Positions 15,413-58,299 of a DNA stretch of 64,000 bases are shown here, in pieces. Numbering within the stretch: the first letter of the stretch is position 1; every line of letters starts with the position of its first letter. Both the position numbers and the translations under genes were made by a program. The DNA lies in the NCBI GenBank assembly GCA_040755095.1, contig JBFMBH010000005.1, forward strand, positions 479 through 64,478, read 5' to 3'. The notes below the pieces were generated by a model. The model was given only the letters and a program-made list of their open reading frames with translations. It searched no databases and was not told the origin of the DNA. This DNA comes from Thermodesulfobacteriota bacterium. Its GTDB lineage: Bacteria > Desulfobacterota > Desulfobulbia > Desulfobulbales > JBFMBH01.

Positions 15413-15476
15413 GCCGCCCTCTCTTTGCGATCCTGCGTTGCCAGTCAACCCGCGCACGGCCAACGTGCCTGCGGCC

Positions 15477-17876: not shown

Positions 17877-17934
17877 GATTGCAGACCTCGCCTCGGAATG
17901 GTCGGCCTCTGGAGGTCGGGGAGCCCAGGGGGCC

Positions 17935-19065: not shown

Positions 19066-19393
19066 GCCCGTGCTCCATCCGCCATTCGGCGCCGGGGCCG
19101 CGAATCCTTGGCCCCGGTGCAGCGCGCCGCCGGCCGTGCTGGCCTCGGAGCTGCGCTGGCTGGCCCCCCGATCATCACGTGGCCCGGATGGCCGACAAGG
19201 CTTCCTTTTCCCTTTATCGCGGCACTGTTCCGATGTCTTTTCTAGGGGTTGGCGTGAGCTGGCAACACTCAAGCCATAATCCCATAGTACGAAATAGCCC
19301 CTGCCAGGACAATGGAAGCCATTTCTCGGAAGCTTGACCTTGTGGGAAGGGACTTCTCGTAACGTTCCTGGGGCGGGGCCGGGGCAGGACCTT

Positions 19394-40269: not shown

Positions 40270-41718
40270 ATGCGCTCCTTCATCCTCCTTCTTGCGTTGG
40301 TGCTTGCTGCCTGTACCCCCGGTCCTGGCAAGCCTGGGCGTCAGGTGCCGCCGGCCGACGCCGCTGGCCTGGCCGTCTATCTCACCGCCTCGGAGCCGCT
40401 GGCCACGGAGGTTTCGTTCGAGCTCAATGGGCTCGCCCTCTTCAATGGCGTCGAATGGCTGCTCCTGGATCCGGGGCCCCAGACGATCAGCGCCCAGGCC
40501 GTGGGGGAGGGTCAGATGCTGTTGGGCTTTTTTGCGGTGCCGCCCGGGGATTACACCCGGCTGCGGGGCACCGTCGGCCCGGCTCGGGTCTCCGAACGGG
40601 GCGACGGCGTCCGCCTGGTGGGCCAGGCCGAGGAGCGGGAGCTGGGCTTTGAGGCCAAGATGCGGCTGGTGGCCGGTCAGCGGGCCTGCCTGCTGGTGGA
40701 CTGGCGGGTGCGCTCGTCTCTCCAGGACAAGGACTGGACCCCGGTCCTGACCGTGACGCCGCAGATGCCGGCCATGACCCGGGAGCTCCTCTATGTGGCC
40801 TGCGACGATATCGACACGGTATTCGTGGTGCGCATGGATACCAACCACGTGGTGGCCGCCTTTGGGGTCCGGGGCGGGCCCACTCAGCTGCGCTACGATG
40901 ACGCCGTGCCCATCCTCTATATACTGGCAAGAGAGACTCGCCTGATCACCGGCCACGACCCCTACGGCAACCGCCAGCTGTCGCGGGCCTTCCTGGGAGG
41001 GCTGCCCGAGCCCCGGTACTGGGATCTGTCCAGGGATGGCCGCTGGGCGTTCGTGACCGACACCGACCAGGCGCTCCTGCAGAAGATCGATGTCACCTCC
41101 GGCTTCGTGGCCCGCCAGCAGTCCTTGAGCCAGCGTCCGGGACGGGTGTTGTTTGTGGCCGAGGCGGAGTCGGGACGGCTGCGCCGGGAGCTGGTGGCGG
41201 TCGCCATGCCCCAGGCCCAGCTGGTGGCCTTCTTCGACCCCGAGACCCTGGAGGTGCTGGAGCCGGCCAGCCTGACGCCGGTCGGTGCCGGCGCCTTGAC
41301 CGGCGTTGACTCGGGCATGGAGCCCGGCCAGATGCTGATGGTGCAGGGCCTCCTCCATGTGGCGGATCGGTTGTCCGGCACCGTGACCATCTACGACCTC
41401 AACCGGGGGCGGCATCTGGCGCGGGTGGCTGTGGGCCTGGAGCCGGTGGCCCTGCTGGCCGGCAAGCAGGACCGCGTCTATGTCAGCCACGCCGGCAGCA
41501 GCAACGTCATGGCCCTGGCCCGGGGCCATCACGCGGTGCTCAAGGATGTGTTCGTGGGGCCGCAGCTGGGGGAGATGGCTCGCCACCTGCGGCGGGGCAG
41601 CCTCTATGTGGCGGTGCAGGGGACCCAGGCCGTGGCGGTCCTGGATCTCAACTCCGACGCCCTGCGGGCGCAGATCCCCTTGCCGGGGCGGCCGGTCTCC
41701 CTGCTGGCCGTCGAATAG
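40270..41718 (+). CDS. Lipoprotein with N-terminal beta-sandwich (DUF4382-like) and YVTN/YncE-like beta-propeller
   Basis: Lipobox LVLAAC. Repeated units such as LYVACDDIDTVFVVRMDTNHVVAAF, RWAFVTDTDQALLQKIDVTSGFV and LYVAVQGTQAVAVLDLNSDAL. Confidence 0.7.
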   Translation: MRSFILLLALVLAACTPGPGKPGRQVPPADAAGLAVYLTASEPLATEVSFELNGLALFNGVEWLLLDPGPQTISAQAVGEGQMLLGFFAVPPGDYTRLRGTVGPARVSERGDGVRLVGQAEERELGFEAKMRLVAGQRACLLVDWRVRSSLQDKDWTPVLTVTPQMPAMTRELLYVACDDIDTVFVVRMDTNHVVAAFGVRGGPTQLRYDDAVPILYILARETRLITGHDPYGNRQLSRAFLGGLPEPRYWDLSRDGRWAFVTDTDQALLQKIDVTSGFVARQQSLSQRPGRVLFVAEAESGRLRRELVAVAMPQAQLVAFFDPETLEVLEPASLTPVGAGALTGVDSGMEPGQMLMVQGLLHVADRLSGTVTIYDLNRGRHLARVAVGLEPVALLAGKQDRVYVSHAGSSNVMALARGHHAVLKDVFVGPQLGEMARHLRRGSLYVAVQGTQAVAVLDLNSDALRAQIPLPGRPVSLLAVE

Positions 41719-41729
41719 GCGGAAAAAGA

Positions 41730-41758
41730 GCGGCCCCCTGGCTGAGCCAGGGGGCCGC
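41730..41758 (-). terminator. Intrinsic terminator downstream of OmcS-like gene 2 (also closes the convergent + strand gene)
   Basis: 13-bp stem GCGGCCCCCTGGC-tga-GCCAGGGGGCCGC. On the minus strand it is followed by TCTTTTTCC. Confidence 0.7.
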
Positions 41759-41838
41759 GGTCATGTGGCCCGGGGCGGCAGGAGGAGGGAGGAGATGGCG
41801 AGAGGAGCCGCCCCGGAAAAGGATCTTCCTCAGGAGAT

Positions 41839-42939
41839 CTAGTCCTTGTTGGTATGACACTTGAAGCAGCCCGAGTCTGCAGCTGCGCCGGCATTGTGGG
41901 CGTTCATGGTGGCGTAGTCCCAGCGGAGCAGGTCGTCGAAGGATGTGCCGTGTGCCCGGTGGCAGGAGATGCAGGTGACGATGGCCTGGCCGGCCACCGC
42001 CGGATTGACCGCTGCGGCCAGGTTGACCACGCCCACCGGCGCCTCGGCGTTGTCGACGTACGCGGCGTACTCGGAGCCGGTGGCGTCGCTCAGGTCGAAG
42101 TCCACCGGATGCCGCAGCCAGGGCGCGCCGAAGGTGGAGTCAACGCCGGTGTTGCCGGTGCCGCTGTGGAAGTTGCCGTGGCACTCGGCGCACAGGAAGC
42201 TGATGGTGCTCTTGTCCACCGAGGCCAGCTCGTCGCTGATCCGGTCCTTGCCCTTGTACTTGTTGCGATCAACGCTGGTCTCGTTCTCCCAGTCGTTGTC
42301 CTCGACGCCGGTGATCCCCATCAGGAAGCGGAAGCTCTTGCCCACGGTGCTGCCGTCGAGGGTGGCATCATCGGCATGGTGGGCGCCGGAGATGTCCTGG
42401 AAGTCGTCCGCTGCCGCATGCTTGCCGTGGCAGCCATAGGAGCCGGCGCAGGTCAGCTGGCTGGCCCAGGAGGCGGCACCGCCCGCCACCTGCGAGCCGC
42501 CGGTGGGGGTGAAGGTGGCGTCGTTGCTCCAGCCGGGGGGCGTCAGGCCAAAGGCCGCGCCATCCTGGGTGGCGATCCCCTTGACGTTGTGGCCCTTCTT
42601 GTCGACATCACCCTGGGCGTCCGCCACCCAGTAGAAGTTGCCGCCGGCCAGCACGCTGGTCACCGGCGAGGGGGCAGCGTCGGTCTTCAGGACCAGGGGG
42701 ATGTTGCTGGAGCCGCCCAGGAGCGCCGTGCCGCTGTGGCAGCCGACGCAGTCGCCCCGGGTCAGGGCCCGTTGCGGGGTGTTTGTGCCGTCATTGGCCA
42801 TGCTGGCGCCGTTCTGGGAGTTGTGCATGGTGTGACAGTCCGAGCAGACGCCGGTGACCCGGGCCTCGGCATTCCCGCTCAAGCCGCAGAATGCCAGCGC
42901 GAAACCGAAGGCAACGATGGAACCATACAGCTTCTTCAT
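41839..42939 (-). CDS. OmcS-like hexahaem cytochrome c, paralogue 2
   Basis: Signal peptide MKKLYGSIVAFGFALAFCGLSGNAEA. Motifs CSDCHTMHNSQ, CVGCH, CAGSYGCH, CAECH, WLRHP, CISCHRAHG and C-terminal GCFKCHTNKD. GAAGGAG RBS before ATG 42939. Confidence 0.85.
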   Translation of the reverse strand: MKKLYGSIVAFGFALAFCGLSGNAEARVTGVCSDCHTMHNSQNGASMANDGTNTPQRALTRGDCVGCHSGTALLGGSSNIPLVLKTDAAPSPVTSVLAGGNFYWVADAQGDVDKKGHNVKGIATQDGAAFGLTPPGWSNDATFTPTGGSQVAGGAASWASQLTCAGSYGCHGKHAAADDFQDISGAHHADDATLDGSTVGKSFRFLMGITGVEDNDWENETSVDRNKYKGKDRISDELASVDKSTISFLCAECHGNFHSGTGNTGVDSTFGAPWLRHPVDFDLSDATGSEYAAYVDNAEAPVGVVNLAAAVNPAVAGQAIVTCISCHRAHGTSFDDLLRWDYATMNAHNAGAAADSGCFKCHTNKD

Positions 42940-43607
42940 GTCAGTGCTCCTTCTTCGAGAAGAGGTGTCGGTGATGCATGACCTGCGATGTTGTTGTTGG
43001 TAAGTCACATCCCTCCCTGTGGTCGCATTATGCTCATTTGGGCCTCATCCCGGTAATGAGCGTACTGTCCATCCCATAATGACCTCCTCATCCCCAAGAG
43101 TTGTCGTTGAGAGCACTCCTTGCTCCAATTATCTCAGATTCCGATCCCTCATTCCATAAGGCAAGTGCTGTATTCTTCTCTGAGCACCTGCTCATCATCC
43201 GTCAGCCGTCTGCTTTGCTGCTACGCGGATCAGTCACTCGGGCTCATGGCGTTGAAACCAGTCCTTGGAATCAGTGTATCATAGCTGCCAAGGGGATTGA
43301 ATGGGATAAGTGTTTATTTTTGCCTAAGCCCATGCTTAGCATGCAGTAAGCCCAGGTGATTTGGCGATGGGCAGTTTTTGGCCATTGTTCAATGTAAAGA
43401 AAACGGTATGGCTTCGGCAAGAGAGCATGTCTTCACCTCTGGCGGGCAGAAGATGAAGCGACTTGACAGATCCGGAGTGGGCGAAGGGGGGAGGAGCGGG
43501 GAATACCCCTCAGACAACGGCGCGTCCAGACGGACCTGGACGCTGCTTCAGGCCCGGTACCGCTTCGAGAAGGGCGAGCTTCTGAGAGGGCGAGGCAGGT
43601 GAAACGC
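42940..43607 (-). promoter_or_regulatory. Long, visibly A+T-enriched non-coding leader/promoter region upstream of OmcS-like gene 2
   Basis: 668 bp without a credible ORF, clearly lower in G+C than the flanks. Possible sigma70-like TTGCCG-N18-TACATT (minus strand, 43391-43420). Nested hairpin ATTAT...GCTCATT-N16-AATGAGC-ATAAT at about 43024-43080. Palindrome CTAAGC-ccat-GCTTAG at 43324-43339. Confidence 0.4.
43522..43543 (-). terminator. Possible terminator after the 12-haem cytochrome gene
   Basis: 8-bp stem GCGTCCAG-N6-CTGGACGC, followed on the minus strand by GCCGTTGTCTG (only a weakly U-rich tail). Confidence 0.4.
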
Positions 43608-44408
43608 CTACATCATCATGGCGTGGGGATCGATATGGCAGGAAAGGCAGTTGGTGGGGTTGGCAATGCTCTTGTCATGGGGATTGCCGTGGCAGGTCAG
43701 GCACTCCGGCAGCAGGTCCGGGCCGTGGCCGAAGCGGTGGCAGAACACGCAGATGAAGGCACCGTGCTTGGTCTTGTTGGTCCGCTGCAGCTCCAGCTGC
43801 TCCGGGTGACAGCCGCCACAGTACGTGGACGGGATGTCCGTTGACCAGGCCACATGGGTCGGCTCATGGGGCTGGTGGCAGCGTAGGCAGGCGCCGTAAT
43901 CCATGCCCTCCACATGGGCCTGGTGGCATTTGAGGCAGGTCTTGAAGGTGCGGTGCACCGGGTGGCAGAAGGAGCAGTCCACCTCGGCATGGGCGCTGGG
44001 GAATTCCTGCATGGCGTCCCCGGGGTAGGGGTGGCAGGACAGGCAGGCCGGCTTGTTGTCGCTATCCTCCCGGAAGGTGATGAGCAGGGGCCGGTGGGGA
44101 TCCTGGTGGCAGGTCAGACACTCGGCCCGGGCGGCGAAGTGCTTGTTGGCAGCGGGCTGGTGGCAACGGGAGCATGCGGGCACCGCGTTCGTGCCCCGGG
44201 GGGGGTGCTCCACGTGGCAGTCCAGGCAGGTGACCCGGGTGCGGTGGCGCTCGCCGTCCTCGAAGATCGCCTTCTGCTGGTCGGGATGGCACTTCTTGCA
44301 GTCGGCGTTGGTCAGGACAGGGGGCTGGGCCCCGGCCTCCAGCACGGCAACCAAGAGACTTGCTGCCAGCACGCCCGCGATACCTGCCCAATAACCTTTG
44401 CTGTCCAC
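43608..44408 (-). CDS. Dodecahaem cytochrome c (12 CxxCH in 266 aa; poly-c7/c3-like)
   Basis: GTG start after GGGAGG. N-terminal hydrophobic segment WAGIAGVLAASLLVAVLEAGA. Twelve CxxCH motifs spaced about 15-25 aa apart. Confidence 0.9.
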   Translation of the reverse strand: MDSKGYWAGIAGVLAASLLVAVLEAGAQPPVLTNADCKKCHPDQQKAIFEDGERHRTRVTCLDCHVEHPPRGTNAVPACSRCHQPAANKHFAARAECLTCHQDPHRPLLITFREDSDNKPACLSCHPYPGDAMQEFPSAHAEVDCSFCHPVHRTFKTCLKCHQAHVEGMDYGACLRCHQPHEPTHVAWSTDIPSTYCGGCHPEQLELQRTNKTKHGAFICVFCHRFGHGPDLLPECLTCHGNPHDKSIANPTNCLSCHIDPHAMMM

Positions 44409-44470
44409 CGTCGCCTCCCGCCGGTGGGCCCACCGGCATGTGCCCAGGCCAGTCGCCCAGGAAGCCTGGG

Positions 44471-45445
44471 CTACTTCTGATGGATCTCGAAAACCTGCAC
44501 GCGCTTGTTGAAGGTGTCAGCGACGATGACCCGGCCGTAGGCGTCCACGCAAACGTCGGACGGGTAGGCCAGCCACCCCCGTCCCGAGCCCTGGCCGCCG
44601 AACTCGAACAGATAGCGTCCCTTCAGGTCGTAGACGTTGACCCCATGCCGCAAATAGTCCGCCACGTAAATGCGGCCGGCCCGGTCGTCCACCGCCACCC
44701 CCCGGGCTCGGGCGAGCTTCCCTGACGAGCCACCCTTCTCGCCGAACCGGAACAGGAAGCGCTCCTCGGCGTCGTAGACATAGACCCTGCCCATGCCCTC
44801 ACTGAGGAGGTAGAGATTCCCTTCCCGGTCGGTGTCCAAGGCGATGATATCCGCCACCTGGCGGCCGCCCCGCACCGTGTCCGTGGGGGCGATGACGTGG
44901 AGAAACCGGCCCTCCCGGTCCAGGACCAGGGCACCCGGATAGTTGCTGCCAGCCATGATGAGGCGGCCTCGGGATCCTTCCACCAGATGGCGGGGGGAGA
45001 ATTCGCTGGCGCCCTCGAAGCCGTCCAGGGTCATTTCCCGCACCTTGATGAAGGCGCCGTCATAGACCTTGATCGCCGGCAGCTCGCCCTGGGCCAGAGG
45101 GCCCCGGCCGGCGTAGAGCAGGCCGTCACCGGTCACCAGCACCGCCGAGGCCCGCCCCAGCTCGCGCCCCTCTCCCAGGGTGAAGGTCGGAAAGTAGTCG
45201 GCTCCGGCATAGAGGGCGATCCGGCCGCCGGCCCCGGAATGCAGGACGTAGAGCTCCTCGGCCTTGCGGTCGTAATGGAGGACCGAGGTGTAGCCCAGGG
45301 CCATGCTGTTGGCATCCACCTCGAGGACCTTGATCACCGCCGTCTCCACATTGGCTGCCGTGGTGGCGGCGGCGCCGGCTGGCTGGGGCCAGAGCGTGGC
45401 CAGGAGCAGGATCAGGAGGAGGACAGGGCTCAGCATGGCGCCCAT
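44471..45445 (-). CDS. Secreted NHL-repeat six-bladed beta-propeller protein
   Basis: Signal peptide MGAMLSPVLLLILLLATLWPQPAGA. NHL units such as ARGVAVDDRAGRIYVADYLRHGVNVYD and YPSDVCVDAYGRVIVADTFNKRVQVFE. No SD-like sequence before either candidate ATG (45445 or 45436). Confidence 0.85.
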   Translation of the reverse strand: MGAMLSPVLLLILLLATLWPQPAGAAATTAANVETAVIKVLEVDANSMALGYTSVLHYDRKAEELYVLHSGAGGRIALYAGADYFPTFTLGEGRELGRASAVLVTGDGLLYAGRGPLAQGELPAIKVYDGAFIKVREMTLDGFEGASEFSPRHLVEGSRGRLIMAGSNYPGALVLDREGRFLHVIAPTDTVRGGRQVADIIALDTDREGNLYLLSEGMGRVYVYDAEERFLFRFGEKGGSSGKLARARGVAVDDRAGRIYVADYLRHGVNVYDLKGRYLFEFGGQGSGRGWLAYPSDVCVDAYGRVIVADTFNKRVQVFEIHQK

Positions 45446-45496
45446 ATTATATGGTAGGCTCGACCGGGAACAAGGGAAAAGTGGCCAAGAAACAAG

Positions 45497-45522
45497 AAGG
45501 GCGGCCCGAACGGGCCGCCCTT
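45497..45522 (-). terminator. Intrinsic terminator/attenuator between OmcS-like gene 3 and the downstream NHL gene
   Basis: AAGGGCGGCCC-gttc-GGGCCGCCCTT, followed on the minus strand by CTTGTTTCTT. Confidence 0.7.
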
Positions 45523-45565
45523 GGAGGAGCTTCTCGAACAGCTCCGAAAGAGGCCGGCGATGAGG

Positions 45566-46675: not shown

Positions 46676-46903
46676 GGTCTTGCCTCCTTGTTGTTTCGTT
46701 TTACGGGTTCTTGGGCCAGACTGCGGGACTACAGTTCGGCATCCCAGTCGTGGACTCCGGCCCGATGTCTTGTCTCCGTATGCTGCTCTACTACCCCATT
46801 TGCCATTTGCCTGCAAGGGAATTCGCCCTGCCATTCATGGTCGCCACTGTACGCGATCGGAAAGGGAAAAGATATACGGCGGCTGGCGTATTTTGTTCTG
46901 GCC

Positions 46904-46938
46904 GGTGCTTAGTTCATGATAAGCACTTCTTAAGCACC
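46904..46938. promoter_or_regulatory. Candidate operator: three GTGCTTA/TAAGCAC half-sites in the divergent intergenic region
   Basis: GGTGCTTA-gttcatga-TAAGCAC-ttct-TAAGCACC. It lies between OmcS-like gene 3 (minus) and the OM-barrel/lipoprotein cluster (plus). Confidence 0.4.
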
Positions 46939-47091
46939 CGCCAGGGCTGGCTTGCGCACTGCATTTCGCGGTAGCCGGACCGGGGCAAATATGGTAAGGG
47001 AATGCCCGGATCCAAGGCCCCGGGCCGGTTTTGGCGTCAGGCCAGGGGGGCGACAGCCGAGCGGCCACTCGCTGCTCACAAGGAGATCTCG

Positions 47092-49254
47092 TTGAAGTCC
47101 AGACAGACCTCGGTTGTCGGCCTTCTCGCCATGCTGGGGGCGGCATGCGGGCTTGGCGTTTCCTGGCGCCAGGCCGGGGCCGGGCCGGTGGCCATCAACG
47201 CCACCCTGGACTACTCCGAGACGCGGGGGGACAGGGACAATGACAACGCCTTCCGCCAGACCTTCCAGGTGAGCCTGGCGGATGATATCGCCGTCACCGA
47301 TACCGTAAGCCTCACCCCGGGCTTCCGGCTCAACAACGACTCCAGCGGCGAGCGCAGTGGCGCCTACGCCATCGACCCCAACCTGGGGCTGGCCATGAAT
47401 ACCGACCTGTTCAGCATGAACGGGTCGTACTCCACGACCACCCGCAAGTCCTCGGGGGATCAGCCCAAGACCTTCTCCCAGGCCTGGGACGTCACCTGGG
47501 CCAGCCGCTGGGACCAGCCCTGGCCCTCCTTCCCGGTGCCGGTGCCCTCGGTGCGCGTCGCCTACGGCGGCAACACCACCGAATCCGGGGACGACCTGAC
47601 CGGCCGCAGCTCCTTTGTCACCGGCACGGTGACCGAGGAGTACGACATCTCCATCTTCCAGCTCGCCTACCGCTTTTCCCGGAACATGAACTGGGACGAG
47701 ATCGACGAGATCACCGGCACCAACGACACCCATGATTTCAGTGTCGACGCCAGCGACCGCTATCTGGACGACCGGGTGCAGCTGTCCATGAGCCACCAGA
47801 CCACCCTGGACCGCCGGGTCACCGAATTCAAGGGCGGGGCCGGCAAGGTGATCGAGGAGGGCTTCACGTTGTCGGAGGACGCCTTTGCGGGGCAGGACCC
47901 TCGACCCGCAGAGGAAAATATCTTCATGGACCTCAGCCTCGCCAACGGGCTCGTGAACAGGACGCTCACGGATCGGGTCGTGAACATTCGAGCGGGGGTC
48001 GATACCCCTGGCGCCATTAGCGGGGAGGAGTTCTGGAATATCCTCGTGGAGGTGCCAGCGGCGTTACAGGAGGTCTCCCGCATCTCTCTCTGGCTGGCCG
48101 AGGAGCTTGCGCTGGAGCCGGAAGGTCTGGACACGGAAGGCGACTACAGCTTTGACGTCTACGGGGGCATGACCCAGAATGGTCCCTTCCACCGGCTGAC
48201 GGGGGCGGATGGGCTCGGCGTGTATCAGTCAGGCGTTTTCCCGTCGGCCGGCGGCCTGCCGTTGGGGGGAGGGCTGCGGCCCCGTTTCCTGATCGACCTG
48301 CCCGCTGGGGCGTGGAATGGGGAGAACTTCCTCAAGGTGGTGTGCCGGATTGAGAAGCCAGTCTCCGTGGCGGCCTGGATCAGCGAGGTGACGCTTTCCC
48401 ATGTGCGCACCCTCACCACCGACGACGAGAAGGACGTCAATATCAGCAACACCTACAAGACCGGTCTGACCATGAACGTCGTCCCGGCCATGGACTGGCG
48501 CTTCTCCACCGGCCTGGTGCACACCCTGCGGGAAAGCTCGCCCGGGGGCGAGCGCACGGACCTGACCCACAACATGAACCTGTACTGGACCCCCAACCGT
48601 TATTTCCGGCCAGTGACGGCGTTCAACCGCAGTATCTCCTCGGGGGACGAAGAGGATACCCTGGAGAACCGCTCCTACAGCATGCGGGTGGCCTCCATGC
48701 CCCTGGATGCCCTGTCCACCTCCCTGGGCTTCACCCGCACCGAGGGCTACACCAACCAGGCCCTGGAGACCATCGGGGATGCCCTGTTTCTGAGCCTGGA
48801 CTCCCAGATCCTCCCCGATTTGTCCGCCAGCCTGGCCGCTTCCTCCACCAAGACGACCAACCGGGTCAGCGGTGCCACGGCCTCGGCCATGCAGGTGGAT
48901 CTGACCGGCAACATGCGGGTGACGCCCCGGCTCACGGCGGACGCCACCCTGGAATTCAGCGAGGCGGACGAGGAGCCCTTCGGCTATGGCGCTGCCCTGT
49001 CCTGGCGGCCGACGGATGTTCTGGCCTGCACCTTGGACTACGAAGGGGGCAACGAAAGCACCATCACCTTGTCTCCGGCCGTGCGGCTGAGCCGGGAGCT
49101 GCAGCTGACCGGCTCATTCGTCCACAGTGACGAGGACGATCTGTTGTCCGTGCAGTCCAAATGGCTGCTCAACGAGCTCATGACCCTGGACCTCCGCTAC
49201 CGGTGGCGGGAGGAGGAATGGGCCTGGAACGTGCGCTTGACAGCAGGCCTGTGA
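47092..49254 (+). CDS. Putative outer-membrane beta-barrel protein with a large inserted soluble domain
   Basis: TTG 47092 lies 6 nt after AAGGAG. Signal peptide KSRQTSVVGLLAMLGAACGLGVSW. Both ends are rich in short alternating polar/hydrophobic strands with Asn/Asp/Gly/Ser turns (LDYSETRGDRDNDNAFRQTFQVSL...; ...LTGSFVHSDEDDLLSVQSKWLLNELMTLDLRYRW). No family recognised by eye. Confidence 0.6.
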   Translation: MKSRQTSVVGLLAMLGAACGLGVSWRQAGAGPVAINATLDYSETRGDRDNDNAFRQTFQVSLADDIAVTDTVSLTPGFRLNNDSSGERSGAYAIDPNLGLAMNTDLFSMNGSYSTTTRKSSGDQPKTFSQAWDVTWASRWDQPWPSFPVPVPSVRVAYGGNTTESGDDLTGRSSFVTGTVTEEYDISIFQLAYRFSRNMNWDEIDEITGTNDTHDFSVDASDRYLDDRVQLSMSHQTTLDRRVTEFKGGAGKVIEEGFTLSEDAFAGQDPRPAEENIFMDLSLANGLVNRTLTDRVVNIRAGVDTPGAISGEEFWNILVEVPAALQEVSRISLWLAEELALEPEGLDTEGDYSFDVYGGMTQNGPFHRLTGADGLGVYQSGVFPSAGGLPLGGGLRPRFLIDLPAGAWNGENFLKVVCRIEKPVSVAAWISEVTLSHVRTLTTDDEKDVNISNTYKTGLTMNVVPAMDWRFSTGLVHTLRESSPGGERTDLTHNMNLYWTPNRYFRPVTAFNRSISSGDEEDTLENRSYSMRVASMPLDALSTSLGFTRTEGYTNQALETIGDALFLSLDSQILPDLSASLAASSTKTTNRVSGATASAMQVDLTGNMRVTPRLTADATLEFSEADEEPFGYGAALSWRPTDVLACTLDYEGGNESTITLSPAVRLSRELQLTGSFVHSDEDDLLSVQSKWLLNELMTLDLRYRWREEEWAWNVRLTAGL

Positions 49255-49408
49255 TGTGCTCTACTCGCCCCGAAGTCTGCGCTGCTGCGTCCAGTCCAGG
49301 GCCGGCGGCCACGGATCCGGAACCGATTGTGCTGTGTGGGGCGACGGCATTGGCGGCAGGCGGCCGTGCTCCGGACCGGCGGCATTCTGGCAGAGAGGAC
49401 TTTTCCAT

Positions 49409-50041
49409 ATGGCTGGCTGGTGGCCGATCCGGCGGCAGGTGCGGAAGGCGGGCGGCAGGGGATGGCAGGGGGCCGTGGCGGCTCGCCTGGGGGGACTTCT
49501 GCTGGTGGTCCTGGTGGCCGGTTGCAGCTCCCATGCCCTGACCTATTATGTCCGGGAGGGCGCTGACCTGACCTTCATCAAGAAGGTGGCGGTCATGCCC
49601 CTGGCCAACAACACCAAGGAGAAGTTTGCCGCCGACCGGGTGCGCAACATCGTGCTGACCCAGGTTCTGGTGGACAGCCTGTTCGACGTCACCGAGACTG
49701 GCCAGCTGGAGAAGATCCTGGAGGAGGAGGCCGGCAAGGCGGATGCGCCTCTGGATGAGGCCCTGGCCCGCCGGCTCGGCAAGCGGTTGTCCGTACAGGC
49801 GTTTCTCCTGGGATCGGTGGATGCCTACGACGAGGAGCGCAAGGGCAACTACTCGTATCCCGTCGTTGCCATGACCTTGAAGCTGGTGGATGCCGAGACC
49901 GGTCTCATTCTGTGGCAGGCCAGCGGCTCTTACAGCGGCTACAGCAGCTGGAGCCGCATCCTCGGCACCCAGGGCAGGGATCAGTCGGCGGTGACCTTTC
50001 GTCTCGTGCGGTCGCTTCTGGCCAGTCTCAGCGGCGACTAG
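49409..50041 (+). CDS. Lipoprotein, PelC/CsgG-N/LpoB/DUF799-like alpha/beta fold, paralogue 1
   Basis: Lipobox LVAGC. KKVAVMPLANNT...DSLFDVTE...LGKRLSVQAFLLGSVDAY...VAMTLKLVDAETGLILWQA. Confidence 0.7.
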   Translation: MAGWWPIRRQVRKAGGRGWQGAVAARLGGLLLVVLVAGCSSHALTYYVREGADLTFIKKVAVMPLANNTKEKFAADRVRNIVLTQVLVDSLFDVTETGQLEKILEEEAGKADAPLDEALARRLGKRLSVQAFLLGSVDAYDEERKGNYSYPVVAMTLKLVDAETGLILWQASGSYSGYSSWSRILGTQGRDQSAVTFRLVRSLLASLSGD

Positions 50042-50098
50042 TCTGGCCTTCGCTCCGTGAGGACGCATCGTCCAGCAGGCCTGCCGTCCCACCGCCTC

Positions 50099-51640
50099 AT
50101 GAGCCTCGGCTTCTCCCCCGGTGCCTGGCCCCGCCTCCTGATCCTCCTCTTCCTGCTGGGCCTCCTGCCGGCAGCCCCGGCGCCGGCCGGTGCCGCCAGC
50201 GGCAAGGTGGCGCTTCTGCCCTTCGACGATCTGTCCCGGGGCGCCAATTCGGTGGACCTGGAGATGACCACCCAGGTCGCCGATCTCCTGACGGTGTCCG
50301 GAATCAACGTGGTGGATGCCCAGGCGGTGCGGGCGTATCTCGCGACCAACCGCGTGCGCCACACCGGGATGATCGATCTCTTCAACACCATGGGCATGCG
50401 GGAGGCCCTGGGTGTGGACTGGATCCTTACCGGCACGGTGACCCACCGCCGCCCCGAGCCGCAGCCGGCCCTGGGCCTGTCCCTTCTCCTGGTGGACGCC
50501 CACACCGGCAAGGCCGTCTGGGCCTGGAACGAGAGCCTGGCCGCCACCGAGCTGGTGAAACCCCTGGGAATCGACGCTGTCACCAGTCTGGCCGCGATCA
50601 CCGATCTGGTCCTGGCCCGGGTGCCGTTCCAGTTTCCGGAGCCCGGCGAAGCCCTGGTGGACCTGCCCATTCCGCCATACTCGGTGGAGAGCTTCGATCT
50701 GAGCTCCCGGTTCGTCGCCGGCAATGGCCGGATGGAGTGCCGGGTGGGCTTCCGTTTTGATGAGGAGCCGCCCACCGACGTCTTCCTGAAGCTGGGGGGC
50801 AAGCGCATCAGTCTGGTGTCCATGGCCAAGGAGAGCGGCACCTACTGGGCGAGCTGGCAGGCGCCGGAGGCAGAGGGGCGCTATTCGGTCGCCACGGTTC
50901 TGCGGTGGAAAGGCCGGCGGGAGGAGTCCAAGTTCCTGGCCTCCTACCGGGTGGTGAACGAGCCGCCGACCGTGTCCCTGCGCTTCGGCAACGGCGTGCC
51001 CCTGGGGGATTCCGGCGTCATCGCCTTCCGCTCCTTCCTGAGCATCAGCCCGGTCGTCAACAAGACCGCTCCCGTGGCTTCGTTCCGCATCCAGATCGAA
51101 GACCCGAAGACCGGCGCCTTCCTCATGGACTTCAAAAGCATCGAGAGCCTGCCCGAAGCCATGGTCTGGCGCGGTGCCGGTGATCAGGGGCCTCTGGGCT
51201 CCGGCTACTACCGGCTCATCCTCACCGTCACCGATGTCATGGGCAACGAGATCGCGGATTCGGCGGAGCTGTACCTGGGCAAGAATCAGCCCCGGGTGCT
51301 GCCCGCCATGGAGCGTCTCGAAGACGGGAGGGTTCAGCTCCACCTCATGGCGGTCCCCGATCCCCAGACCGGCGAGATGGAGCCGGTGCCGGTGAAGTAC
51401 TGGCAGCTGCGGGTCACGGATCGGGAGCGCAACTTCCTTCTGGAAGAGGAGGGAGAGACGCTGCCGGCCACCGTCACGCTGGATCCCGGCGCCGAGACGG
51501 TCTTTCTGGTCTCCTACCTGGTGCGGGATGTCCTGGGCAACGAGCGCCACGCCCGCAGCGAGACCGTGGAGCTGCCCGTTACCGGCGGCGGCGAGGACCA
51601 AGACAAGAAGGAGACCGATGTCTGGCATGAGGAGTTCTAG
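50099..51640 (+). CDS. Secreted protein: the same alpha/beta fold (paralogue 2) + three Ig-like/FlgD-Ig-like beta-sandwich domains
   Basis: Signal peptide ...LLILLFLLGLLPAAPAPAGA. GKVALLPFDDLS...GINVVD...LGVDWILTGTVTH...LSLLLVDAHTGKAVWAW. Later MVWRGAGDQGPLGSGYYRLILTVTDVMGNE (FlgD-Ig-like). Confidence 0.7.
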   Translation: MSLGFSPGAWPRLLILLFLLGLLPAAPAPAGAASGKVALLPFDDLSRGANSVDLEMTTQVADLLTVSGINVVDAQAVRAYLATNRVRHTGMIDLFNTMGMREALGVDWILTGTVTHRRPEPQPALGLSLLLVDAHTGKAVWAWNESLAATELVKPLGIDAVTSLAAITDLVLARVPFQFPEPGEALVDLPIPPYSVESFDLSSRFVAGNGRMECRVGFRFDEEPPTDVFLKLGGKRISLVSMAKESGTYWASWQAPEAEGRYSVATVLRWKGRREESKFLASYRVVNEPPTVSLRFGNGVPLGDSGVIAFRSFLSISPVVNKTAPVASFRIQIEDPKTGAFLMDFKSIESLPEAMVWRGAGDQGPLGSGYYRLILTVTDVMGNEIADSAELYLGKNQPRVLPAMERLEDGRVQLHLMAVPDPQTGEMEPVPVKYWQLRVTDRERNFLLEEEGETLPATVTLDPGAETVFLVSYLVRDVLGNERHARSETVELPVTGGGEDQDKKETDVWHEEF

Positions 51641-52304
51641 TTCGGCCAGCACCGGCTGCTGGCCGCCCGGGTCGAAAAGCCGCTCCGGGGGGACCCCTGG
51701 CGGTTCGCATCCAGGTCGGGTACACTGGCTCGTCACCGTTCTTCTGGCGTGTCTCGCCGCCGGCTGCGGCAAGGCCCAGCACAGTCTGGGCCTGGTGGCC
51801 GCGGGGGGGGAGGGGATCTGCCGGGTGGCGGTGCTGCCCTTCCGGGACCAGGGCAAGGTGCCCTTTGGCGGGCACGTGGTCCAGCGGACGTTCACCGCGG
51901 AGCTCATCGCCAGCGGCCGCTTCGATGTAGCCCTGGAGGGTGAGGTGCTGGCCTTTTTCCGGGAGAACCGGCAGCTGCCCCAGGCGACCCTGTCCCGGGA
52001 CTTCTACATCAAGATGGGCCAGACCATGGGCGTGGACGCCATCGTGGCGGGCACGGTGCTCGGCATGAGCGAAGGCTCCGAGGGCCGGGATATGGTGGTG
52101 CCAGAGGTGGCCTTCTCCCTGGAGCTGATCCGGATCCGGGATGGCAAGCCCCTGGTGGTGACCCACCACCACCGTGCCGGGGATGAGTATCGATGGCTCA
52201 TGCACGTCGGGGTGGTGCAGACCATTTCGGAGCTGGTGAGCCGGATGAGCAAGGAGGCGATCGAGGAATGGCGTATCTTGGGCTTCGAGGGTTGTCGGTT
52301 GTGA
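51618..52304 (+). CDS. Lipoprotein, same alpha/beta fold, paralogue 3
   Basis: Lipobox CLAAGC. CRVAVLPFRDQG...SGRFDVAL...MGVDAIVAGTVLGM...AFSLELIRIRDGKPLV. AAGGAG RBS; the start overlaps the upstream stop by 23 nt. Confidence 0.7.
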   Translation: MSGMRSSSSASTGCWPPGSKSRSGGTPGGSHPGRVHWLVTVLLACLAAGCGKAQHSLGLVAAGGEGICRVAVLPFRDQGKVPFGGHVVQRTFTAELIASGRFDVALEGEVLAFFRENRQLPQATLSRDFYIKMGQTMGVDAIVAGTVLGMSEGSEGRDMVVPEVAFSLELIRIRDGKPLVVTHHHRAGDEYRWLMHVGVVQTISELVSRMSKEAIEEWRILGFEGCRL

Positions 52305-53992
52305 AGCGGGCCAGCTTGCTGGGCCTCGTGACGGTGCTGGTGCTCTGGGGCTCCCTGGCACAGGCGGTGTGGCCCTTCGGGGAACGGCACCTCCTGGTTC
52401 TCAATGGCGCCGGGCACAGCAAGGCGGATTTTCTGCAATTCTGGGAGCAGTGGAAGGAAGAGGACAGCCCGGTTCCCGACAGCCCGGATTTCTGGATCGA
52501 CTGGCTGCTGTTTTATCAGGAGGCCGAGCAGATGGAGCTGGGCGATGCCCCGGCGGTGCAGGCCAAGCTGTTCACCTTCCTCAAGGTGCGGGCCCTCATG
52601 CAGCTGCGCCAGGACGAGGTGACCAGCAGGATGGCCGCCGTCGATGAGGAGCGCCTCTGGCAGCGCTATTTGCAGGACGAGGCGCCCCTGTACAAGATCG
52701 AGAGCGTGCTCATCGCCGACCAGGCGGCTGCTGGCCGCTTCGCTGAGCTGGCGCGGGCTGGCCGCCCGTTCGCCGAGGTCGTCACCGATCCCAGCCTCGG
52801 CCTGGCCGAGCCGCCCAAGGTGATCTCGTCGGACTGGCTGCGGAAGAGCAAGGTGCCCGAGACCTACCGGGAGGATCTGGCGAAGGCCGAGCTCGGCTCC
52901 GTGCTCGGTCCCCTGTTCTGGGAGCCCAAGAAGACCTACTACCTGGTGCGGAAGGTAGAGCAGCAGGCTGGCAGCCAAGAGGACTTCCAGAGGATCCGCA
53001 AGGACATCGAGGAGCGGCTCTTCAAGGAGGAGGACGGCCGCCTGACCAGAGACCTCCTGGTCCGTCTGATGAAGGAGTACGAGGTGGTGACCCACGACGA
53101 CCGGATCGAAGCCCTGCCCATGAACGGCGGCTCCCAGGAGCAGCTGAGCGCCGTGGTGGTGGAGATGAAGGGCGGCAGGACGGTCACCGGCGGTGAGCTC
53201 GTGCAGATGGTGATGCGGGATCTGTCCATGCGGATGCGGCCCAATGCCCAGGGCTCTTTCGACATGGTGCATGGCGATTTCAATGACGCCAAGCGCCGGG
53301 TGCTCATGGATTACCTGGGGGCGGAGCTGACGGTTCGGGCCGCCCTGGACCGTCACTATGAGCAGAAGCCGCCCATCAAGGATGTGTTCGATTTTTACCG
53401 CCAGCGGCGCATGATCCTCGAGCTGAAGAACCGGCTGTTCCGCACCCAGGTGGAGGTCAGCGACCAGGAGGCCCAGGCCTTCTACCAGGCCAACCAGCAG
53501 CTGTTCACCCACCCCGCCTCCCTGGAGCTCGCCATCCTGAGCACCCGGGACGAGAAGCTGGCCGATTTCCTGCGCAAGGAGCTTCTCTCGGGCAAGGATT
53601 TCTTCGAGGTGGCCAACCATGTGGTGGCCGGCGGGGTGAATCCGACCAATGTGCTGGTGAGCGATCTCGATCCGGCGATGGTCGAGGCCCTGTCCGGAGT
53701 GGCCGAGGGGGCGCAGGTGGGCCCGGTGAAGATCGGCGAGGATACCCACTTCATCAAGCTTATCCGCCGGCGGGAGTCGGTGGTGCGGCCCTTGGACGAA
53801 GTCAAGCACATGATCACCAGGAAGCTGCACGAGGAGCGGATCCAGGAGAAGGAGGAGGCCTTTCGGCAGAAGCTGCGGGCGGTCTCCAAGATCGAGGTGG
53901 ATGACGGCCAGTGGCAGGAGGTGGTCCGCACCCTGAAGGCCCAGGAGGCGGCCCGGCAACAGGAGAAGGACAAGCCGGCAAAGGGCAGTTGA
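52301..53992 (+). CDS. SurA/PpiD-like periplasmic chaperone with parvulin-type peptidyl-prolyl isomerase domain
   Basis: GTG 52301 overlaps the upstream stop (GTGA); the alternative is ATG 52268. Signal peptide VKRASLLGLVTVLVLWGSLAQA. C-terminal rotamase-like ...FFEVANHV...VSDLDPAMVEALSGVAEGAQVGPVKIGEDTHFIKLIRRR. Confidence 0.75.
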   Translation: MKRASLLGLVTVLVLWGSLAQAVWPFGERHLLVLNGAGHSKADFLQFWEQWKEEDSPVPDSPDFWIDWLLFYQEAEQMELGDAPAVQAKLFTFLKVRALMQLRQDEVTSRMAAVDEERLWQRYLQDEAPLYKIESVLIADQAAAGRFAELARAGRPFAEVVTDPSLGLAEPPKVISSDWLRKSKVPETYREDLAKAELGSVLGPLFWEPKKTYYLVRKVEQQAGSQEDFQRIRKDIEERLFKEEDGRLTRDLLVRLMKEYEVVTHDDRIEALPMNGGSQEQLSAVVVEMKGGRTVTGGELVQMVMRDLSMRMRPNAQGSFDMVHGDFNDAKRRVLMDYLGAELTVRAALDRHYEQKPPIKDVFDFYRQRRMILELKNRLFRTQVEVSDQEAQAFYQANQQLFTHPASLELAILSTRDEKLADFLRKELLSGKDFFEVANHVVAGGVNPTNVLVSDLDPAMVEALSGVAEGAQVGPVKIGEDTHFIKLIRRRESVVRPLDEVKHMITRKLHEERIQEKEEAFRQKLRAVSKIEVDDGQWQEVVRTLKAQEAARQQEKDKPAKGS

Positions 53993-54098
53993 AGGCAGCT
54001 GCGAGCGTCTTGCAGGGAGGGATGGAGCCTCGGCCGGTGGCCTGTGACCTGGGCGAAGGCCGGATCAGGGTACAACCGTTTGCGAAGAGGGACTCTCG

Positions 54099-56123
54099 AT
54101 GATGCAGGAGACACGCCAAGTGGGCAATGGCAGTCGGATGGGGCTCTTGGGGAGACAGGGAACGGTGTGGCTGTTGACCGCCGCGCTGCTCCTGGGGCTG
54201 GCCGCCTGCGTGCCCCAGCCGTCCGAGTCGTCCCGATCTGCCGGCAAGGCCAAGAAGAGCTGCGTGGAGTGCCACGAGACCGAGTACAAGGCCTTCCAGA
54301 CCGGGGTGGTGCACAAACCGGTACAGGAGGCCAAATGCGACGGCTGCCATGACCCCCACGGCATGATCGGCGGCACCTTGCTCAAAGCGGATGAGCCGGA
54401 GCTGTGCTATTCCTGCCACGCTGCCGTCCGCCAGGCGGTCCAGGGGGCGGCTCACGGCCATCCGCCGCTCCAGAGCACGACGGCCGCCTGCACCAGCTGC
54501 CATGCTGTCCACAACTCCCCCCATGCCAAGCTCCTCAAGGAGCCGGCCGCTACCTTGTGCTTCAAGTGTCACGATCAGACGGAGTTCGGCCGCACCAACC
54601 GTCACCAGCCGCTGCAAACCGGGTGTGCCTCATGCCACCAGGTGCATGGCGCCCCGGCAGCCAAGCTGCTGCCCAAGGAGCCGGACGCCTTCTGCCAGGA
54701 CTGCCACCAGCCGGACGGCAAGGGGATGGAGGCAGGCCACCGGGGGTACCCCGTGCAGGGGGGCTGCGTCTCTTGCCATCAGCCCCACTCGGCCAGTCGC
54801 GCCAAGCTGATCCGGGAGGTCCCGCACCAGCCGATGCTGGAGGGGCAGTGCGAGTCCTGCCATGCCGGCAAGGGCAAGCCCGAGCCACTCGCCCTGACCG
54901 GCACGGGCAGCAGCCTGTGCCGCGGCTGCCATGACGATGTGACCGCCGGTCAGACCCAGAGCGTCCATGCACCGGTCACCGGGGGCGAGTGTCTCTCCTG
55001 CCACGCCCCCCACGGCAGCAACCACCAGGCCATGTCCCGTCAGGCCCCGGAAAGGCTGTGCTTCGAGTGCCATACCTTCAAGCAGATCGGGCCGGAGAAG
55101 ACAGGGCAGACCGAGAACGGCCACCAGCCGGCTGCCGAAGGCCGGTGCCTGACCTGCCACGCGGCCCACGCCGCACCGGTCAAGCCGCTGCTCAAGAGCC
55201 CTGCCGCCGACCTGTGCTTCTCCTGCCATGGCAAGGAGCCGGGGTTGGCCGACCGGAGCCACCAGCCGGTGAAGGAGCGGCGCTGCACCTTGTGCCACTC
55301 GCCCCACGAGTCCCAGGGCAGCCATCTTCTGGCGGGAAGCGAGCAGGAGATCTGCCTGACCTGTCACAAGAAGACCGGGGACGATATGACCCTGGCCTAT
55401 CTCCATCATCCCTTTGCCAACGGCGATTGCACCGGCTGCCACGCCGCCCACGGCTCCAGAAGCGCCGGCATGCTCAAGGCCAGCGGCGTTGCCCTGTGCG
55501 CCTCCTGCCACCAGAAGCTCATCGAGGAGCGGACGGCCAATATGAAGAAGCATCAGCCCTTTGCCCAGGGCGAGTGCATGAAGTGCCACGCCCCCCATGG
55601 CTCGGACAACCCCTTCACCCTGGTGCACAAGCTGGCGGACACCTGCTTCACCTGTCACAGCGGCCTGGAGCGCCAGATCGGCTCGGCCCGGCAGGTCCAT
55701 GAACCGGTGGTCAAGCGGAACTGCACCGCCTGTCATACGCCGCATGCCTCGGCCCAGGACCACCTGATCACCCGGGCGATGCCCGAGCTGTGCCTGGCCT
55801 GCCACAAGGAGGTGGCGGAATTCTGGAGCGGCGGCTTCGCGCATGAGCCGGCGGTCTCCGGGCAGTGCGCCAGCTGCCACGTCAGCCATGCCGGCGCCGA
55901 GGCCAAGCTGCTGGCCCGCAGCGCCTCAGGTCTGTGCGCCACCTGCCATCAGATCAGTGATACGGAGATGGTGCGGATCCACAAGGGGATCCGGCCGTCG
56001 GAAAAGAGCTGCACCAGCTGCCACGACAGCCATGGCTCTCCCACCCAGAGCCTGACCTTTGCGGTGGAGCATGCCCCCTTCAAGGAGCGGGACTGCAAAC
56101 CATGCCACGAGGAGGCGAAGTGA
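54099..56123 (+). CDS. Lipoprotein multihaem cytochrome c with 26 CxxCH motifs
   Basis: Lipobox LLGLAAC. Twenty-six CxxCH motifs counted, in a paired arrangement (C..CH.[PV]H......L.......LC..CH). The start may be ATG 54138. Confidence 0.9.
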   Translation: MMQETRQVGNGSRMGLLGRQGTVWLLTAALLLGLAACVPQPSESSRSAGKAKKSCVECHETEYKAFQTGVVHKPVQEAKCDGCHDPHGMIGGTLLKADEPELCYSCHAAVRQAVQGAAHGHPPLQSTTAACTSCHAVHNSPHAKLLKEPAATLCFKCHDQTEFGRTNRHQPLQTGCASCHQVHGAPAAKLLPKEPDAFCQDCHQPDGKGMEAGHRGYPVQGGCVSCHQPHSASRAKLIREVPHQPMLEGQCESCHAGKGKPEPLALTGTGSSLCRGCHDDVTAGQTQSVHAPVTGGECLSCHAPHGSNHQAMSRQAPERLCFECHTFKQIGPEKTGQTENGHQPAAEGRCLTCHAAHAAPVKPLLKSPAADLCFSCHGKEPGLADRSHQPVKERRCTLCHSPHESQGSHLLAGSEQEICLTCHKKTGDDMTLAYLHHPFANGDCTGCHAAHGSRSAGMLKASGVALCASCHQKLIEERTANMKKHQPFAQGECMKCHAPHGSDNPFTLVHKLADTCFTCHSGLERQIGSARQVHEPVVKRNCTACHTPHASAQDHLITRAMPELCLACHKEVAEFWSGGFAHEPAVSGQCASCHVSHAGAEAKLLARSASGLCATCHQISDTEMVRIHKGIRPSEKSCTSCHDSHGSPTQSLTFAVEHAPFKERDCKPCHEEAK

Positions 56124-57307
56124 TGCGCGGCTTTTTCCTGATCGTCGTGATGGCGGCCGGCCTCGGCTTCACCCTCGCCGAGGCCCAGGCCGCCCGGACC
56201 AACTGCACGGCCTGCCACGACCCCGAGAGCTTCGCTGGCCGGGTGGTGCATGGCCCGGTGGCGGAGAAGAAATGCTTTTCCTGCCACAGCCCCCACGCCT
56301 CCCGCCATGAAGCCCTGCTCTATGGCAAATCCCCGGAGCTGTGCTTCAGCTGCCACAAGGATATCGACGAGGGGCTGAAGAAGCAGGAGATGCTGCACGG
56401 CCCGGTCCGGCAGGGCAAGTGCGCCGACTGCCACCTGCCGCATGCGGGCAAGGACGATGCCCTGCTCAAGGCCGGGGTACCGGAGTTGTGCTTCGGCTGC
56501 CACAAGGAGGTGGCCGGCCGGGGTGCCCGGCATACCCATGCGCCGTTTGCCCGGGGCCAGTGTCAGGCCTGCCACGTGGCCCACGGCTCCAGCACGGTCG
56601 CCCTGCTCAAGGCCGGGGTGCCGGGGCTGTGCCTGGGCTGCCACAAGGACGAAGGCGCGATCCGCGGCAAGCATTTGGGACGGGCCCTGGCGGGGATGGA
56701 CTGCCTCACCTGCCACAGCGGCCACGGCTCGGACCACAACGCCCTGGTGCGCAACAACCTCCACCCGCCGTTCAAAGACAAGGACTGCGGCACCTGCCAC
56801 AACCGTACCGACAAAGGGGTGGCCCTGTGCTTCGACTGCCACGAAGGCATCCAGAGCTCCTTCAACTACACCCACAACCACATGATGTCGGTGTCCGGGG
56901 TGGACAACATCTGTCTGTCCTGCCACAACGCCCATGCAGCGGACGACAAGAAGATGCTGGCCGGCACCCAGTACGGTGTCTGCAAGCGCTGTCACGCCGA
57001 CACCTTCAAGCGCCGGGAGGGGGCGTTGCACACCCATCCCAACTGGGGGGTCTGCACCAATTGCCATCAGGCCCACGGCTCCAACCAGATCGCCCTCATC
57101 CGGGGGGATGGCAATGGCACCTGTGAGCAGTGCCATGCCACCCAGGGCAAGTTTGTCCACCCCATCGGCGACAAGGTCCGGGATCCCCGTTCCGGCCAAC
57201 CGGTGACCTGTGTCACCTGCCACAATGTCCATGGCACCGCCTTCAAGTACAACCTCCGCCTGTCGGGGGAGAAGGACCTCTGTGTCCAGTGCCACAAGAG
57301 CTACTAG
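56123..57307 (+). CDS. Periplasmic/secreted multihaem cytochrome c with 16 CxxCH motifs
   Basis: Signal peptide MRGFFLIVVMAAGLGFTLAEAQA. Sixteen CxxCH motifs counted. Its ATG overlaps the upstream stop (TGATG). Confidence 0.9.
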   Translation: MRGFFLIVVMAAGLGFTLAEAQAARTNCTACHDPESFAGRVVHGPVAEKKCFSCHSPHASRHEALLYGKSPELCFSCHKDIDEGLKKQEMLHGPVRQGKCADCHLPHAGKDDALLKAGVPELCFGCHKEVAGRGARHTHAPFARGQCQACHVAHGSSTVALLKAGVPGLCLGCHKDEGAIRGKHLGRALAGMDCLTCHSGHGSDHNALVRNNLHPPFKDKDCGTCHNRTDKGVALCFDCHEGIQSSFNYTHNHMMSVSGVDNICLSCHNAHAADDKKMLAGTQYGVCKRCHADTFKRREGALHTHPNWGVCTNCHQAHGSNQIALIRGDGNGTCEQCHATQGKFVHPIGDKVRDPRSGQPVTCVTCHNVHGTAFKYNLRLSGEKDLCVQCHKSY

Positions 57308-57330
57308 CCCCGAGGAAGGAGACTCCGACC

Positions 57331-58206: not shown

Positions 58207-58299
58207 CGGGCATGACCGGTCTCCACAGCGGATATCCAATGTCGAACAAGGAATGTCCAACCGCCTGAAGGGACCGGCGGAACGGGTCTGAAACGTCCA

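Follow-up and report, generated by a model that had tools for sequence, protein, structure and literature searches.

In OmcS (GSU2504) of Geobacter sulfurreducens (6EF8/6NEF), a histidine of the adjacent subunit serves as ligand to one haem (PMC12307469, PMC9473688). A cluster of OmcS-like cytochromes is known from Desulfuromonadales, Geobacterales, Desulfobulbia, and Thermodesulfobacteria, and in the syntrophic sulfate reducers which are partners of anaerobic methanotrophic archaea (ANME), such cytochromes occur in multiple copies and rank with the most highly expressed proteins (PMC10553843). One of them, DA_402 from Desulfurivibrio alkaliphilus, has CX2-5CH motifs and falls into a clade that is sister to OmcS; its induction in iron-oxide respiration exceeds 100-fold, and it is a predicted filament former (PMC12545173). 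For the osc (omcS-companion) operon of G. sulfurreducens, PMC13194489, citing Shen et al. 2025, assigns OscH to folding, OscEFG to secretion, and OscD to morphology. The same source lists OscI/J as periplasmic cytochromes and names the paralogues omcT and oscC (PMC13194489). Here we describe an OmcS-like gene, termed paralogue A, from a metagenome-assembled genome (MAG) of a Thermodesulfobacteriota bacterium assigned to Desulfobulbia (assembly GCA_040755095.1). The analysed stretch of 64,000 nucleotides (contig JBFMBH010000005.1, positions 479 to 64,478 of the forward strand) is referred to as the window, and positions are those of the window unless a different locus is named. Two further OmcS-like genes of the window are termed paralogues B and C.

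Judged from its sequence, paralogue A is a predicted secreted c-type cytochrome with six haems that belongs to the OmcS-like family. We assign a probability of roughly 0.55 to the following overall explanation. A would be folded, exported, and electrically fed by the osc-type cluster encoded in the window, by analogy with the osc operon of G. sulfurreducens. Outside the cell, it would polymerise head-to-tail via a bond from His39 to haem 5 of the next subunit, resulting in a conductive filament of the OmcS type. Its gene would be driven mainly from its own putative promoter, located within an AT-rich spacer of 668 nt, and ends at a strong intrinsic terminator. An own promoter would allow A to be regulated independently of B, whose layout is alike, and of C, which is part of an operon. 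The features of the locus are collected in Table 1.

When A alone was compared to the PDB sequences with phmmer, OmcS was the single match (E 5.9e-8). A family profile built from 120 homologues matched OmcS with an E-value of 1e-18 (70.9 bits; profile positions 29-345, OmcS residues 8-348), and the next matches of this profile in the PDB were local CxxCH matches to NrfA (E ~1e-3). An AlphaFold (AF2) model of A, computed from the alignment of the 120 homologues, is mostly coil (pLDDT 80, pTM 0.82). With this model, Foldseek returned OmcS as the sole match in the PDB (probability 0.98, TMq 0.42), the fold similarity being moderate. OmcS is thus the only PDB sequence match and the only fold match for A, and the term "OmcS-like" of the initial annotation is well chosen. 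Pfam and NCBIfam yield generic paired-CXXCH matches in the C-terminal part and nothing else, and they provide no curated family name. A protein 100% identical to A, encoded in the MAG called "Thermodesulfobacteriota bacterium" at NCBI, is annotated merely as "cytochrome c3 family protein".

The open reading frame (ORF) of A codes for 366 aa on the reverse strand, with the ATG start codon at 42939 and the stop codon ending at 41839. A Shine-Dalgarno sequence precedes the ATG (Table 1), and GGAGG-type sites are found at the same position in most loci homologous to A. An in-frame GTG further upstream, at 43008, is devoid of a Shine-Dalgarno sequence, and homologues begin at the chosen methionine. 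After the predicted signal peptide, the mature protein would begin with RV. The N-terminus forms a helix (residues 2-21) in the AF2 model and is the same in an orthologue from another Desulfobulbia MAG (locus L037).

Translation reveals five CxxCH motifs and one CX5CH motif in A. The landmarks listed in the initial annotation (CSDCHTMH, WLRHP, CISCHRAH, and GCFKCHTNKD) were all recovered; the sixth haem motif (CX5CH) was absent from that list. Conservation was judged in the alignment of the 120 homologues. Invariant residues are C32, C35, H36, T37, M38, and H39 in the haem-1 block, C164, G166, G169, C170, and H171 in the haem-3 block, and C323, C326, H327, and H330 in the haem-5 block. Altogether, 13 histidines are invariant (the six proximal ones plus H39, H117, H187, H188, H258, H277, and H330), a number sufficient for bis-His ligation of six haems. 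Conservation within the family is highest in two blocks, CxxCHTMHNSQ and C[IVL]SCHRAHG, which were also picked as search patterns in the locus scan of genomes; they align with OmcS His16 and with the haem-5 motif of OmcS. The inter-subunit ligand of OmcS is reportedly His16, bound to haem 5 of the neighbour (Wang et al. 2019). By its alignment position, H39 would be the equivalent of His16 and may have the same inter-subunit role in A. The invariance of H39 and of the haem-5 block fits a conserved polymerisation mechanism, with which it is compatible without being a proof of it.

A peculiarity was observed for the third haem motif, C-A-G-[ST]-[YF]-G-C-H. The CX5CH spacing is kept in 120 of 120 homologues, and the motif is modelled as a beta-hairpin, whereas OmcS has a plain CxxCH (CSSCH) at this position.

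OmcS and A are both mostly coil, six-haem proteins of comparable size, secreted in the case of OmcS and predicted to be so for A, and all six haem motifs of A are colinear with those of OmcS. The two proteins share the blocks CxxCHTMHNS, LRHP, C-x-SCHRAH-x-x-[FY]D, and a C-terminal CxxCH-x-KD. Identity is ~22% over the structural alignment. A is the shorter of the two (366-aa precursor, compared to 407 aa for mature OmcS) and does not have the insertion which is present in OmcS between haems 5 and 6. While OmcS has been seen as a filament, A is known here from its gene and a predicted model.

The sister-clade cytochromes (DA_402 and those from the ANME-partner sulfate reducers) have the same taxonomic range as A, and multiple copies per genome are typical. 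The CX5CH motif of A fits the CX2-5CH description given for DA_402, the two being likened by description. Identity to A is 44-49% for homologues encoded in Desulfurivibrio, Hydrosulfovibrio, and Desulfofervidaceae genomes. The MAG lineage of A stands apart from the sister-clade proteins, with no relative closer than 56%. Furthermore, the arrangement with three paralogues and with A following a 12-haem cytochrome gene recurs in a single one of the loci examined, L037. The family of A has 934 representatives (50% identity) at E <= 1e-3 and 327 at E <= 1e-30 among 1.84 billion, and more than 547 loci were found in GTDB species genomes. It is distributed over Thermodesulfobacteria, Desulfobulbia (including Desulfurivibrio and Hydrosulfovibrio ferrireducens), Desulfuromonadia, Ca. 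Desulfofervidaceae, and Nitrospirota. The family is widespread and already described, and A is a well-formed but ordinary example of it.

Table 1. Features of the paralogue A locus and related elements of the window. Coordinates are given in ascending order, irrespective of the strand.
Feature	Position	Strand	Basis and remarks
Paralogue A, coding sequence of a 366-aa OmcS-like hexahaem c-type cytochrome	41839..42939 (stop included)	-	ORF and translation
Predicted Sec-type signal peptide of A, residues 1-26, MKKLYGSIVAFGFALAFCGLSGNAEA	42862..42939	-	read from sequence; cleavage-type site between AEA and R
Haem-1 motif of A, CSDCH followed by TMH	42823..42846	-	translation; H39 aligned with OmcS His16 (OmcS: CEGCHTMHNS)
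Haem-3 motif of A, CAGSYGCH (CX5CH)	42427..42450	-	translation; set on OmcS QLHCSSCH by profile alignment
Haem-5 motif of A, CISCHRAH	41950..41973	-	translation; aligned with OmcS C328-x-x-C331-H332
Shine-Dalgarno sequence AAGGAG, 7 nt 5' of the ATG of A	42947..42952	-	sequence
AT-enriched non-coding spacer/leader of A, presumed promoter and 5' untranslated region	42940..43607	-	668 nt
Intrinsic terminator of A, stem of 13 bp (12 G-C), loop of 3, then TCTTTTTCC	41730..41758	-	terminator scan
Conserved 482-aa neighbour, convergent with A	40270..41718	+	homologues in 23/81 loci; no Pfam match
8-bp hairpin GCGTCCAG-GTCCGT-CTGGACGC 3' of the 12-haem gene, weak T tail GCCGTTGTCTG	43522..43543	-	
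12-haem periplasmic-type cytochrome, 266 aa, upstream neighbour of A	43608..44408	-	12 CxxCH; Pfam c3/c7
NHL-repeat beta-propeller protein, 324 aa	44471..45445	-	Pfam NHL E 1.4e-12; in 44/81 loci
Intrinsic terminator directly 3' of paralogue B	45497..45522	-	strict scan
Paralogue B, 369 aa	45566..46675	-	42% identical to A
osc-type companion cluster, divergent from B	47002..57307	+	Pfam; gene order
Paralogue C, 376 aa	17935..19065	-	38% identical to A

The osc-type cluster codes, in this order, for a 750-aa protein, an LpoB/CsgG-like lipoprotein (Pfam LpoB/CsgG 2.6e-8), a 527-aa protein, a second LpoB-like protein, a peptidyl-prolyl isomerase (PPIase; Pfam Rotamase_2 8e-17), and two cytochromes with 26 and 16 haems. 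The same order is encountered in Thermosulfuriphilus ammonigenes, where the cluster adjoins a tandem pair of OmcS-like genes together with genes for an NHL protein and for 12-haem-type cytochromes, and synteny of the cluster extends to many further loci. Co-occurrence of neighbours was counted over 81 loci: osc-type neighbours co-occur in 35-49 and individual neighbours in 23-49 of these. The gene upstream of A had been described as a 12-haem cytochrome and has indeed twelve CxxCH motifs; its homologues adjoin OmcS-like genes in 49 of the 81 loci. By its gene content (PPIase, lipoproteins, a large protein, 26-, 16-, and 12-haem cytochromes, and an NHL protein), the locus is of the osc type.

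As summarised in PMC13194489, the osc operon resembles the window in that OmcS-type genes are accompanied by genes for a PPIase, lipoproteins, a large envelope protein, multihaem cytochromes of the periplasm, and an NHL protein, and in that paralogous subunit genes occur within the same cluster. The two differ in that the assembly genes of the window are divergent from the subunit genes and that paralogue C is 23 kb off, in another operon. Homologues of the 482-aa neighbour are usually encoded directly upstream of an A-type gene and on the same strand; in the window and in L037, the gene is located downstream of A, on the opposite strand.

A loose terminator scan performed no better than shuffled sequences (4 sites, compared to 3.9), so that a strict scan of both strands of the 64 kb was added, which required a perfect stem of 11 bp or longer, a GC content of 60% or more, and a T-rich tail. 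It reported two sites only, one after A and one after B, and none in 20 shuffled windows. This confirms that the terminator after A is not a chance pattern. It is located ~80 nt past the stop codon, between the convergent genes for A and the 482-aa protein. Both the 13-bp stem which the initial annotation had reported at 41730-41758 and the strong 3' termination of A are therefore borne out.

The region upstream of A had been described as non-coding, A+T-enriched, and 668 bp long. Its length is exactly 668 nt and its GC content is 0.53, compared to 0.67 for the window. Upstream gaps were evaluated in 80 related loci, and OmcS-like genes were compared to the other genes in these loci. The median gap is 213 nt for OmcS-like genes and 26.5 nt for other genes. 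Gaps of at least 300 nt precede 44% of the OmcS-like genes (background 15%), and gaps of at least 500 nt precede 19% (background 5%). The mean GC content of the gaps before OmcS-like genes is ~10 points under that of the locus. The leader of A is in the top 5% of the family, a gap as long as 668 nt being found for 3 of 69 A-type genes. In L037, where the A-type protein is 49% identical to A, the gene order is NHL protein, 12-haem cytochrome, a long gap (1216 nt), the A-type gene, and the 482-aa gene on the opposite strand. Because long gaps are recurrent and L037 has a gap of this size, we consider the long spacer to be a maintained trait. It is most simply explained as a promoter plus regulatory region. 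The L037 spacer (positions 2037-3252 of that locus) is ORF-poor and has a GC-rich core (0.62 at 2401-2600) with AT-rich flanks.

The spacer might alternatively carry a cis-regulatory RNA for A, either a riboswitch, comparable to the cGAMP/GEMM-I elements that precede cytochrome genes in Geobacter, or a small RNA. Its length and an imperfect palindrome (GCTCATT-N16-AATGAGC at 43026-43067, with 13-nt arms that are 85% complementary, located 90-130 nt before the ATG) are in line with this, and there is precedent, as riboswitch-controlled extracellular cytochromes were reportedly described in Geobacter by Kellenberger and by Nelson in 2015. However, no Rfam family matched the window at gathering score, no riboswitch or other family was found even at E <= 10 in 41600-47200, and seven related loci were likewise devoid of Rfam matches. 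The GEMM-I (c-di-GMP/cGAMP) covariance model gave no match in the 5' leader of A. The minimum free energy of the folded leader equals that of shuffled sequences (z 0.17), and the leader is not conserved with any homologous leader: no similarity was detected to 80 homologous loci or to the remainder of the window. A regulatory RNA thus seems very improbable, and we return to the spacer as a promoter region. The palindrome itself could be an operator or a hairpin, a suggestion without conservation support.

A hidden gene or pseudogene in the leader was considered and rejected, as its small ORFs have no Pfam match and neither tblastx nor blastn against the 80 loci yielded anything. A conserved leader motif was also rejected, as leaders are alike merely between close genomes which are 85-95% identical over the entire locus. 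Relatives suited for a covariation analysis were sought in genome and metagenome scans, which gave none above 56% identity. The leaders of A and of the syntenic L037 gene have no more k-mers in common than expected by chance. The sequences GCTCAGAGAAGAATACAGCAC (43166-43186) and GCTTAGATAAAAATACAGCAT (L037) are identical at 17 of 21 positions and are located 235 and 268 nt before the ATG, respectively; shared 9-mers are not above shuffles, and this similarity may be coincidental. Right after the stop codon of the 12-haem gene, a 16-nt sequence is imperfectly duplicated in tandem (43562-43593; GCTTCGAGAAGGGCGA / GCTTCTGAGAGGGCGA on the forward strand).

A conserved element was encountered in six other loci (L006, L009, L011, L019, L020, and L026). 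It reads TGCGACAATTTGCC[GA][CT]ATT and precedes the start codon of the A-type gene by 45-95 nt. L006 and L009 share 27 identical nt in this element, their coding DNA being ~70% identical. The element is absent from the window and has no Rfam match. In L006, L009, and L011, a sigma-54-like TGGCAT/TGGCTT-N5-xTGC is found ~150 nt upstream. In the window, a relaxed sigma-54-like pattern, TGGYWYNNNNNTTGCY, occurs 6 times as compared to 0.45 expected. One match, TGGCATCCGGCTTGCC at 58448-58463 on the reverse strand, is 188 nt upstream of the ORF at 57304-58260. Another (42910-42925) is within the signal-peptide codons of A; at A, the pattern matches inside the coding sequence and nowhere in the leader.

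The initial annotation had called the paralogues similar but non-identical, and had placed A and B 2.6 kb apart. B ends at that distance, and pairwise identities are 42% (A/B), 38% (A/C), and 33% (B/C), which indicates old, divergent duplicates. Recent near-identical duplicates are ruled out by these values, and A-type and C-type proteins have their own orthologues in other orders. These two types are separate old subfamilies, each with its own best matches, and a C-type gene follows the A-type gene in tandem in many genomes. No B-specific orthologue was found in the loci examined. B alone barely matches OmcS (E 0.23), and the matches of A and C to OmcS are better. The layout of B is like that of A: it has an AT-enriched divergent region of 326 nt, an AAGGAGG, and a terminator 44 nt past the stop codon. 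C lacks a terminator and is the first gene of an operon, followed 58 nt downstream by an NHL-domain gene and then by a giant cytochrome. Consequently, the "stand-alone unit" of the initial annotation holds for A and B with respect to the leader-plus-terminator design and does not extend to C; an own promoter was not detectable for A.

The C operon (7610-19276, reverse strand) includes an 879-aa ORF with NHL and InlB-B-repeat domains (ATG at 17876) and a 2617-aa ORF with 13 haem motifs (7610-15463). A sigma-54-like TGGCTTGAGTGTTGCC is located at 19261-19276, ~196 nt upstream of C.

Mixed filaments composed of several paralogues are speculative. It is also conceivable that the long leader is kept as a regulatory region of a kind not yet described, by which a non-Geobacter lineage switches between three ancient subunits, namely the A-type, the C-type, and the lineage-specific B, each of them building its own nanowire for a given acceptor or partner. 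We regard this as decidedly unlikely.

Among 18 genes of the window, A has the strongest codon bias (Nc 30.1, GC content at third codon positions 0.90), the Nc of B being 31.5; this hints weakly at high expression. Together with the good Shine-Dalgarno sequence and with homologues that are highly expressed elsewhere (PMC10553843, PMC12545173), it makes high expression of A plausible. To regard A as a pilin-like, highly expressed, and separately controlled subunit would be a reasonable assumption by analogy.

Several points weigh against the overall explanation given above, and the first of these concern transcription. No sigma-70-like promoter was found at 41-48 kb, and the number of sigma-54 consensus matches is at chance level, with none in the leader of A; in this phylum, little weight can be placed on scans for promoter consensus sequences. 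There is no convincing terminator between A and the 12-haem gene, hence co-transcription is possible. The hairpin after the 12-haem gene (Table 1), which the loose scan did not report, is a leaky terminator at best, and its poor T tail leaves room for read-through into A. A might then be the last gene of a transcript that covers B, the NHL gene, the 12-haem gene, and A, or only the latter three, with a spacer that is functionless or decayed. All four genes are on one strand, the spacer has neither a promoter motif nor structure nor conservation, and in 7 loci an A-type gene follows an NHL gene with a gap of <15 nt, which indicates co-transcription there. We nevertheless consider such a read-through transcript an unlikely alternative to an own promoter, because A-type genes of different phyla are repeatedly preceded by long AT-rich gaps and the L037 gap, which is at the same position, indicates that the spacer is kept. 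In addition, the strong terminator of B should result in less read-through from B, and the codon bias of A is above that of the NHL and 12-haem genes.

Further points concern the filament. The likeness to the osc operon is one of domain content and synteny alone, with the Osc proteins compared by their description. No filament structure has been solved for any member of the clade of A, and the margin by which the codon bias of A exceeds that of other genes is small. We know of no report of the Geobacter paralogues OmcT and OscC in filaments; to our knowledge, OmcS alone has been seen as one. OscC is given as periplasmic in PMC13194489. In analogy to OmcT and OscC, A might be a non-polymerising accessory paralogue, that is, a monomeric hexahaem electron carrier in the periplasm or at the cell surface. 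Three paralogues coexist and would hardly all serve as major filament subunits, and the moderate fold similarity of A to OmcS points in the same direction. On the other hand, A-type genes are the most conserved subfamily and are usually in the first position with a long leader, the His16 equivalent and the haem-5 motif are invariant, and A and C are closer to OmcS than B. We thus consider an accessory role somewhat unlikely and retain the explanation that A would polymerise into an OmcS-type filament.

The understanding of how such systems work is unchanged by A. The locus adds a deep-branching lineage of Thermodesulfobacteriota (67% GC, no relative above 56% identity) to the carriers of OmcS-type cytochromes with an osc-type cluster. 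It also documents a family-wide gene design, with a long AT-rich leader, a strong Shine-Dalgarno sequence, and a strong terminator, and the two most conserved peptides of the family are those which form the iron-histidine bond between OmcS subunits. This is useful for annotation, because such proteins are now labelled merely "cytochrome c3 family protein", and it aids the choice of candidates for structural work on nanowires from organisms other than Geobacter.

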